Positions 24,001 through 27,000 of a stretch of 50,212 nucleotides of DNA are shown piece after piece. How positions within the stretch are numbered: the stretch's first letter is position 1; each line of letters begins with the position of its first letter. The stretch lies in the IMG/VR virus record IMGVR_UViG_2874945390_000009; one strand, 5' to 3'. Made by a program: the position numbers. This DNA comes from a virus. Taxonomy: Duplodnaviria > Heunggongvirae > Uroviricota > Caudoviricetes.

Positions 24001-27000
24001 GGCTTCAATATCATTCTGGTTCACAACCATCCTCCGGAAGTCACCCATGGGTTTTCTTCATCAGGCACCACTTTTTTTCGTTTCTTTTTTTTAACGGACA
24101 CGGATACCGGCTCCGGCGAGGCTGACAGTCCGGCATCGTCCCTGACACGCTCCAGCCAGGTTTCCCTGCATGCCCATTCCGGCGCATCCGGCCACTGAAT
24201 TTTCTCGTAACCATGCAGAATGACCAGAGCCTCGGCATACACCATCAGGTCAAAAGCTTCGTTGGCACCTCGACCCGGCTTACTCCATTTCCCGTCACTG
24301 CTCCGCTCTTCATACGTCAGTTCGTCGTAAAACCAGCTCCCCAGCCAGTCAGGGAAATGCACATAGCCGGGACCTGGCGAGTCACGCCATAACGCGTTAT
24401 TCACCCGGTCTTTCAGGGCATCCGTCTGAAGAAGCCAGAGCGGCACATCACCTGCGGCCTGCGCCCGTCGGCCCGTTCGTCCGGTGTTATCAGGGAATGT
24501 ACGGGTGATCAGTTTTGCGCGCCGGATGCTGTCGCCCTTAAACAGGTAAATACGTTTACCAAGGCCATCACGACGGCAACGACGCCAGAATTTATAGGCA
24601 TTATCAGTGACCCCGTCTTCACCGCCGGAGTCCACCGCCATTGCCATCAGTCGCATTTGTTGAGAAGGATCGGAGGCCAACGGCCAGCTTTTATGAAAAA
24701 CATCCGTCAGCAGGACATCCCAGTCCTCAGGATAACCAGCAGGATCAATTCGCAGGCTTTCTCCGTTGTTGTCACAACGCAATGACTGCGTGATGTTGTA
24801 ACGATCAATAATCCAGCGTTCGCCACGGCAACCATAACCCGTTACCTGAACCACAAAACGGCGATGACGTCCCGCCTGCACATCCACTGTCGCCGCCAGG
24901 AAATTAACACCATCCGGCACGCAGCGGGGAGGAACAGGCTCTGCCCGCTGCTCAAGCAGTTCACTTTTTCGTTGCTCCATGCTGGCGCGGGGAAGATAAG
25001 GTAATCCCCAGTCGGTGTTGATAACCGCCCTGAGTGTTTCTTCACTTCCGGTTGTCTCGTATTCCTGTTCTGCAGTAAGCAGTTTGTAAACGAGTTGCGA
25101 GAGTGTCTGGTAAGCAGCTGCCGGACCCTCCATCCAGAATGACGCAATACGTGAACGCCTGGGATCACCATAACGACTGCCATCCGCATTGATGGATTCA
25201 CCATCCCGCAACCAGACCCCACGTCCGTTCAGCTCACGTTTTTGTTCAGGCATAATCCGTCCTGAACAGGAAGGACACTGAATATAAGCCGCCTCACTTG
25301 CCAGCACGGGATCGGCAATATCACGGAAACCAGCAACCACATCGCCGCAGGGCTGAAAATACTCACCACAGTGTGGACAGGGCCAGTACCAGCGACGGCG
25401 ATCGCCACGGTTATAGAGCGACAGTATCCCCGTGGTTGGTGGAGCCTCATGCGGTGAAGTCCGTCGCCATTTCACATCCTTCACATCCCTGCCGGGGGAA
25501 CTCTCCACCAGCGTCATACCACTGGACATAAATGTTGTGGTACGTTTTGAGGCAAGAGAGAAAGCATCCCCCTCACCATCAATATCTTCCGGAAAACGGT
25601 CATAATCCGTCAGCGCGACGCATTTATAATCTGATGAGGACATGATATTGACTGACGGCCAGCCGATTTTCAGGTAGTTGCCAGCAAGGAATGTTCTGTC
25701 ATAAACGTTGTTGTCATTTTTGTTCGGACTCAGGCGACTGACCACTTCCGGGCTGACGCGAAACGTTCTGGCGAGTCGTTTTTTGGAGTGTTCGCGGGCT
25801 TTTTCCTCCGTCATCTGAATGATCAGCATATCAGCAGGATCGCAAATCACGTTGTAAATCACCCAGCCGTCAATCAGGCCGATAGTCTTGCCGGTTCGTG
25901 CCGGGCCAACAAATATCACTGCGTCGTATTCACGCGAGGCCAGGCAGTTCATCGGCTCAATAACATACGGTGCCACCAGCGGATCCCACGGGACTGAGTT
26001 CCCTGCCCCCATGGGCACCCGCATATACTGAGCAACGGCATCAGCAACCCGCATTCGTCTCGGTGCGCGAAGGATATAACCTGAATCGGTTCGTGCTGCC
26101 TTTGCGGTTTCCTGATTCAGCATTACTCCTCCTGCTGTAATTCCTCCTCATCATCCGCACCTGCTTCAGTCACCCGCAGGGCTATCTGATCGCGCAGATC
26201 ATCAATAATGGACTGAACACGGCTCACAGCGGCAGGCTGCAGACCGCAGTCACGTTCAAGAATATCCGGTAATGTCTCCAGCACCTGCACGACCGCTTTT
26301 GCCCAGATGGCAAACTCCCGTCTGACATCACTGGCCGGAATGAGTTGTGCCGTTTCCTGTTCGAACTTAAGACGCTCACGTTCAGACTGATACCAGGCTT
26401 TGCGCTCATGCGCGTCCATTTCGCCTTCTGCAACCGGCGGTGGTAATGCCAGAAATGCCGACACAATATCAACCACCCGATAAAGCTTGAGGTTGCTTTC
26501 ATGCCCCCCTGCAACGGGTAGATTTTGCAGCCTTGCCGCAGCAGTCTGGCGATGTACACCTGACAGTGCCGCCAGTTGACTGATATTCAGCGTCAGATTT
26601 TTTTACTCTCGATCCATACCCGCTCCAGAATGTTTTAAACATGCATCTTGCGAACAACTTTAGGCAAACGGTGTTAGTGATGAACAAAAAACAATCAAAA
26701 TCGACACCATAAAAATAAAACCACTGTAATATCAATCCATTATAGTAGTGGTGATGACGAATGAAATTTCAAAAACTAGCCTTTTTCCGCGCCGCTCCCG
26801 CCCCGTGGCAGGCCACCCCACCGGGAGGACCCGTCAGCCTGACAGCCATGACGAACGTCTGATACAGCGCCCTGCATGAATGACATCGGGATAATCCAGA
26901 AAGGAATAGCATCGTACCCACAAGAATCAGTGTAAGTGTCCTGTTTCTTCCACCCCCGCACAGGACTGGCGAGCATGAGGGACAAACCCGCGAACCATAA

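Follow-up and report, generated by a model that had tools for sequence, protein, structure and literature searches.

A probable inherited nonsense mutation in the small terminase gene of a decaying, ipaH-carrying lambdoid prophage of Shigella boydii

The decay of Shigella prophages by point mutation and insertion sequence (IS) insertion is well known, and the ipaH prophages of Shigella and enteroinvasive Escherichia coli (EIEC) are lambdoid elements that carry ipaH beside their tail-fibre genes. In phage lambda the small terminase subunit (TerS) is Nu1, whose gene forms an operon with that of the large subunit (TerL), gpA; the N-terminus of lambda TerS has been described as a winged helix-turn-helix (wHTH), and the structure 6HN7 is a complex of RppC with lambda TerS(1-98) (PMC6739421). 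We analyzed the small terminase gene (terS) of a 50,212-nt stretch of Caudoviricetes DNA (IMG/VR record IMGVR_UViG_2874945390_000009; hereafter the window). The window is a lambdoid prophage that carries ipaH as cargo and contains IS600, IS1 and IS66 elements. As in the lambda operon, a gene of the DUF1441 family lies directly upstream of, and overlaps, a gene for a gpA-family large terminase. Unlike lambda Nu1, terS appears to be inactivated in this prophage: an inherited TTA to TAA nonsense mutation at Leu5 has very probably made it a pseudogene, within a cryptic prophage that is itself decaying and bears at least five independent disabling lesions, this one included. The IS600, IS1 and IS66 insertions, the tail-gene frameshifts and the broken integrase gene found here are likewise shared with the ipaH prophages of Shigella and EIEC, from which this element differs in nothing substantive; the TAA allele at codon 5 (TAA5) is confined to a single S. 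boydii lineage, and ipaH is frameshifted in this copy.

On the minus strand, a Shine-Dalgarno (SD) element GGAG (26626-26623) is followed after a 5-nt spacer by an ATG (26617-26615), by GAT CGA GAG and then by TAA (26605-26603). The sequence after the stop (AAA AAT CTG ACG CTG AAT ATC...) is in the same frame as this ATG and remains open for 159 codons, to an end stop at 26125-26123 that overlaps the ATG of terL (TAATG). A first-pass annotation had described a well-placed ATG with GGAG upstream, the peptide MDRE, a TAA beside a run of seven A residues (A7) and an in-frame continuation, and all of this was confirmed on the sequence. Its further statement that no ATG, GTG or TTG start lies between the stop and the helix-turn-helix (HTH) also held, as reading through the frame revealed none between the TAA and codon 48, where the first one, GTG 26476, occurs. 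The 117-aa product from GTG-48 would be without most of the predicted wHTH, and an exact look-up of this ORF gave no gene call on record. A scan for promoters and terminators around terS yielded nothing notable. Ribosomes starting from the native SD and ATG would thus stop after four codons and, because there is no canonical start between the stop and the wHTH, essentially no functional TerS would be made, leaving terS a pseudogene.

Comparison with homologues supports both the position of the start and the nature of the stop. The terS sequence differs from an intact 164-aa allele (WP_000373425.1, E. coli FDAARGOS_943) solely by a T to A change at 26604, which converts TTA to TAA and a run of six A residues (A6) to A7. 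The coding sequence begins at the equivalent ATG in FDAARGOS_943 and in the functional phages phi458, Ayreon, vB_EcoS-569R4, mEp460_4F5 and mEp460_ev081, and every intact DNA relative examined encodes Leu at codon 5, as TTA or TTG. We aligned 36 homologues from Escherichia, Salmonella, Enterobacter, Scandinavium, Hafnia, Buttiauxella, Lelliottia, Klebsiella, Serratia, Providencia and Proteus, and found M1, D2 and E4 to be invariant and position 5 to be Leu or Ile in 36/36. The N-terminal MDxE(L/I)K is thus conserved across genera, from E. coli to Proteus and Providencia, which argues that ATG 26617 is the genuine start of terS and of the family. No homologue in the alignment starts downstream of this position, the finding that would have contradicted the first-pass reading; Leu8 is internal throughout, and the only downstream starts we encountered are CTG calls made on mutant alleles. 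The TAA is a nonsense mutation, as had been proposed, standing as it does behind a conserved start at a codon that encodes Leu or Ile in every homologue. The AAA to TAA change suggested in the first-pass annotation did not hold, as the alignments give TTA (Leu) as the ancestral codon, with the change in its middle base. That annotation therefore stands for the true start, the stop, the want of a canonical restart and the small terminase identity; its AAA ancestor does not stand, and neither does the consequence it drew for packaging, to which we return below. The A7 run is private to the mutant allele, the homologues having A6 or A5 (TTA-A5 or TTG-A5), and a T beside A6 turned to A would fit misalignment ('dislocation') mutagenesis at a homopolymer.

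The assignment of the DUF1441 protein as a Nu1-like HTH small terminase subunit is well supported by gene position and PHROG family. The gene is immediately upstream of, and translationally overlaps, a 700-aa gpA-family TerL, the same length as WP_000934139.1 annotated in FDAARGOS_943 and FDAARGOS_944. The protein matched phrog_141 ('terminase small subunit') with an E-value of 4.6e-73 and phrog_57, also a small terminase family, with 1.5e-9, and it scored 141.5 bits with Pfam DUF1441 (PF07278; E 2.4e-41; profile positions 1-146/147), for which the gathering cutoff is 35.1. No hit to the Pfam Nu1 family was obtained at E <= 0.001, a phmmer search of the intact protein against PDB sequences returned nothing relevant, BLASTP against lambda Nu1 gave no significant similarity (E 20), and the literature on DUF1441 amounted to incidental mentions only. 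In an AlphaFold2 (AF2) model derived from the alignment of the 36 sequences (mean pLDDT 80), residues 2-6 are predicted to form a short helix and residues 9-56 a beta-alpha-turn-alpha-wing-alpha arrangement, with long helices thereafter. The best PDB match in Foldseek was 6hn7_B (probability 0.99, E 0.03), followed by MerR-type wHTH domains; we infer that this 72-residue chain is the TerS fragment, because chain A is RppC-sized (132 residues; 131 in 6HLK). By hhalign, DUF1441 residues 9-54 aligned with lambda Nu1 residues 2-49 at 28% identity (E 1.3e-3, probability only 18%). The AF2, Foldseek and hhalign results agree with one another and none is individually significant, so that a Nu1-type fold is consistent with the modelling but weakly so. 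As in lambda gpNu1, a predicted N-terminal MerR-like wHTH would be followed by helical oligomerisation/TerL-binding regions. The differences from lambda Nu1 are the want of significant pairwise sequence similarity, the placement by Pfam outside the Nu1 family, and 7-8 extra conserved N-terminal residues (MDxELKxL) that are absent from Nu1. The earlier identification as a Nu1-like small terminase is thereby upheld, more firmly for the family than for the fold.

The region upstream of terS also resembles that of lambda. By eye and by alignment, ACG-GGGCGGGAGCGG-CGCGG at 26792-26806 (minus strand of the window) resembles the lambda cos junction ACG-GGGCGGCGACCT-CGCGG. This GC-rich cosN-like motif precedes the terS ATG by about 175 nt (190 nt in lambda) and is a likely cosN, with a putative cohesive-end sequence. 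When the lambda cosN 12-mer was searched for in the window, only a chance-level hit elsewhere was obtained.

To assess the state of the rest of the prophage, the window was checked against the intact proteins of the relative FDAARGOS_943, and several further lesions were found (Table 1). The gpZ-like tail protein aligns over residues 1-179/194 only, its last 15 codons having been lost to an IS66-family element. The frame break in the tape-measure gene gives two ORFs (12456-14387 and 11359-12459), a second tail gene is also frameshifted, and IS1 and IS600 interrupt the integrase gene and an early hypothetical gene, respectively. Genes for gpJ, I, K, L, M, T, G, V and U, the head genes, the portal and TerL are full length. 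The integrase and tail lesions mean that neither excision nor tail building would be expected even with a working TerS. The proposal that the TAA would block DNA packaging is for this reason incomplete and, given at least four other disabling lesions, moot. The virulence cargo has not been spared either: ipaH (850-2600, plus strand), which encodes an IpaHd-like type III secretion system (T3SS) E3 ligase, carries a 1-nt deletion near 1079 relative to the 583-aa gene of FDAARGOS_944 and besides it only 2 mismatches, and the frame is lost after about 78 codons (...LPEIP), so that ipaH in this prophage copy looks like a pseudogene as well. The transposase of the IS66 copy (16348-17912, minus strand) is itself split into ORFs of 334 aa and 187 aa that overlap at 16908-16911, and this IS copy may be frameshifted.

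Table 1. Coordinates of the terS locus and of the other lesions in the window.
Feature	Position	Strand	Basis or remark
Small terminase subunit gene (DUF1441 family), interrupted at codon 5	26123-26617	-	PF07278, phrog_141
Shine-Dalgarno GGAG, 5 nt before native ATG	26623-26626	-	Computed anti-SD duplex -6.0 kcal/mol
Native ATG, family-wide start	26615-26617	-	Annotated in FDAARGOS_943, phi458, Ayreon, 569R4 and mEp460 derivatives
Premature ochre TAA, codon 5	26603-26605	-	Derived base 26604, coding-strand T to A; ancestral TTA (Leu)
A7 run (A6 in intact alleles)	26598-26604	-	Substitution makes the flanking T another A
CTG, Leu8 of intact protein; only plausible weak restart site	26594-26596	-	NCBI start of 157-aa CDS
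Predicted winged HTH coding region, residues 9-56	26450-26593	-	AF2: E9-11, H12-19, H23-29, E45-47, H48-56, pLDDT ~80
GTG codon 48, first in-frame canonical start past TAA	26474-26476	-	Anti-SD pairing -1.1 kcal/mol
Large terminase subunit gene (gpA family), intact 700 aa	24021-26123	-	GpA_ATPase E 9e-72, GpA_nuclease E 7e-84
IS66-family element, 2.76 kb (TnpA, TnpB, split transposase), in 3' end of gpZ-like tail gene	16316-19075	-	Bounds approximate, BLAST HSP ends
Frame break, tail tape-measure gene (intact 1013 aa)	12474-12501	-	Frame -3 to -2, reference codons 628-634
Frame break, tail-fibre N-terminal-domain gene (intact 470 aa)	3710-3716 (about)	-	Frame -1 to -3, reference codon 351
IS1, ~85 codons into integrase gene	48362-49153	+	Insertion vs FDAARGOS_944; IS1 transposase ORFs; recombinase ORF resumes 49139
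IS600, splitting early hypothetical gene	42318-43583		

The same gene is broken in other prophages, by different mutations. In the closest relative, FDAARGOS_944, the DUF1441 gene has a G6 to G5 change unlike TAA5 and is labelled 'frameshifted' by PGAP, and in E. coli O157:H7 SS17 it has an A-run deletion. In JBFOBH010000004.1 and CP146564.1 (loci L014 and L016, positions 1440-1500), codon 3 is changed from CGA to TGA (the TGA3 allele) with codon 5 still TTA; these prophages have different neighbouring genes. Further frame-fused DUF1441 gene calls are present in the protein database (P0013, P0026 and P0028). Such recurrent breakage of terS is the pattern to be expected when prophages are domesticated and selection on a gene is relaxed. 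Two draft contigs, JAKYIJ010000135.1 and LBBD01000171.1 (L018 and L019), begin right after the A-run (TCTGACG...), leaving codon 5 outside them, and short-read assemblies seem to break at this run.

Annotation has obscured these events. NCBI annotates the mutant alleles as a 157-aa 'DUF1441 family protein' that starts at the CTG (26596-26594) two codons past the stop, and this product was found on 7 contigs, with gene calls at 3017-3490 of loci L011 and L012. The same CTG-start protein is called in the TGA3 prophages; as TGA3 and TAA5 are annotated identically, a single 'MULTISPECIES' protein record covers two pseudogene alleles. The homologues begin 7 codons earlier, at the ATG, and the conserved MDxELK lies upstream of the CTG. 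Judged from the aligned sequences, the CTG start is an annotation device that rescues the reading frame and neither a feature of the family nor evidence of a different start.

Two observations weigh against regarding terS as a dead gene. It is otherwise identical to the intact allele, showing no further decay, so the mutation must be recent or the gene must still be of some use. In addition, the CTG two codons past the stop has GAGAG 9 nt upstream, and its product would keep the whole predicted wHTH. The allele might therefore be leaky, with ribosomes starting at CUG-8, either directly or after the 4-codon mini-ORF, and making a small amount of functional TerS that is without the 7 N-terminal residues and retains the wHTH. 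CUG does initiate in E. coli reporters, and the site here has an A-rich spacer; the hhalign alignment, which places DUF1441 residue 9 opposite lambda Nu1 residue 2, would have the CUG-8 product begin where Nu1 begins. However, those reporters put CUG at about 1-2% of AUG (range 0.02-3%) when optimally positioned behind a strong SD (bioRxiv 10.1101/063800), whereas the SD-like element here is weak, with a computed duplex of -3.4 kcal/mol compared with -6.0 kcal/mol for the native SD. Starting at CUG-8 would also remove the family-invariant D2 and E4, and no homologue uses this codon, Leu8 being internal everywhere. Weak initiation together with the loss of D2 and E4 would be expected to leave at most a trace of possibly impaired protein, in a prophage that is in any case unable to make tails or excise. 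We consider a leaky allele unlikely.

The occurrence of two independent early stops, TGA3 and TAA5, in genes that are otherwise undamaged speaks for such leakiness and could be taken to extend it to both alleles, which would then be attenuated rather than null, a mini-ORF of 2-4 codons being followed by reinitiation at CUG-8 and the production of trace TerS lacking 7 residues. The pairing is partly an ascertainment effect, however, as the search was for the 157-aa product, and we hold this broader version to be more doubtful still. If true, it would be a natural instance of CUG restart preserving some activity of a packaging gene, with possible consequences for helper functions or for transduction by co-resident elements. 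The arrangement recalls restarts behind early nonsense codons, such as the early ambers of lacI, and non-canonical CUG starts in its very early stop, its near-cognate start within 2 codons and its weak SD-like element. Classical lacI restarts use AUG, GUG or UUG, whereas here only CUG is available, at about 1% of AUG in reporters, and it corresponds to an internal Leu in every intact homologue.

The distribution of the TAA allele bears on whether the mutation is real. The locus is common: of 5,426 complete E. coli genomes about 1,500 contain a match, as do a dozen phage records. Nor is the interrupted reading frame a chance pattern, since intact genes homologous to it at every base are present in about 1,000 E. 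coli genomes and in several phages. When a 71-nt query centred on the stop was compared with the 987 matching complete E. coli genomes, none gave a perfect match and none carried the TAA allele, the best hits having exactly one mismatch; scanning for the exact pattern likewise gave 0 hits in IMG/VR, in GTDB representative genomes and in JGI metagenomes. By tracing the lineage through its IS66-truncated gpZ-like tail protein, the source names of which agree with Shigella boydii, we found the allele in three S. boydii assemblies: CP026836.1, which has been cited as Shigella boydii (PMC12817139), QWSV01000117.1 and DAYJKZ010000116.1. The window is 100% identical to CP026836.1 over 20.6 kb and 99.97% identical to the draft QWSV01000117.1. 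In the collections scanned, the derived TAA5 state is thus restricted to one lineage and to S. boydii assemblies only. A sequencing or assembly error beside the homopolymer, the real genome reading TTA, could be suspected from the position of the change, which abuts the A-run at 26604 where errors are frequent, and from the absence of the allele from all the large collections scanned. Such an error is very improbable: the change is a substitution, unlike the length changes typical of homopolymer errors, and the same base is found in three separate deposits, one of which differs from the window by 2 mismatches and 1 gap in 10.6 kb and so is not a copy of the same record.

Bypass of the stop by recoding, whether by ochre readthrough or suppression or by ribosomal or transcriptional slippage on the A7 run, is hardly credible. 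In its favour, the run is a potential slippery sequence, and the loss of one A from the mRNA would bring an out-of-frame upstream ATG at 26642 into register with DUF1441, the kind of start that is annotated in GenBank mEp460. Against it, the TAA is in frame with both the native ATG and the downstream ORF, so that ribosomes from the native start cannot evade it by shifting frame, and those that slip by -1 from the frame of ATG-26642 would meet AUC UGA directly, as read from the sequence. That ATG is essentially without an SD (-0.7 kcal/mol), the A7 run is unconserved and no conserved recoding signal is present. Of the E. coli stop codons UAA is the one least often read through, and the window contains no suppressor tRNA, its only tRNA having a CAT anticodon. 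Programmed recoding at A7 was rejected on the grounds that the run is private to the mutant allele and that ATG and ORF already share a frame.

Two observations concern these sequences in their own right. The mEp460 record (JQ182728/NC_019716), at nucleotides 1-60, corresponding to window 26642-26590, reads ACG at the terS start codon and has an A-run that is shorter by one A, and its terS is therefore annotated from the upstream, out-of-frame ATG (MFKTFWSGYGSRVKNLTL..., 172 aa). We rejected this ATG as an alternative terS start; mEp460_ev081, mEp460_4F5 and Ayreon carry the canonical ATG ... TTA/TTG AAA AAT, so the peculiarity is isolated to JQ182728, which either contains two reference errors or comes from a viable phage whose terS really does start elsewhere. 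The prophage tRNA (31721-31796, minus strand) was called tRNA-Met by ARAGORN, and PGAP has a tRNA-Ile at the corresponding position of FDAARGOS_944, which suggests a lysidine-type tRNA-Ile2; lambdoid prophages often carry such tRNAs.

We conclude that an inherited nonsense mutation at Leu5 is by far the most probable explanation for the state of terS in this S. boydii prophage. Events of this kind are known already, and public databases already contain the sequence, with a CTG-start annotation that misleads. The biological weight of the finding is small, as this prophage copy is broken in several places. It does lend further support to the assignment of DUF1441 as a small terminase subunit of the Nu1 type. 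Its value for annotation is that the TAA5 and TGA3 alleles are displayed as an intact 157-aa protein, which masks the pseudogene, and masked terS pseudogenes of this kind could inflate counts of 'intact' prophage packaging modules.

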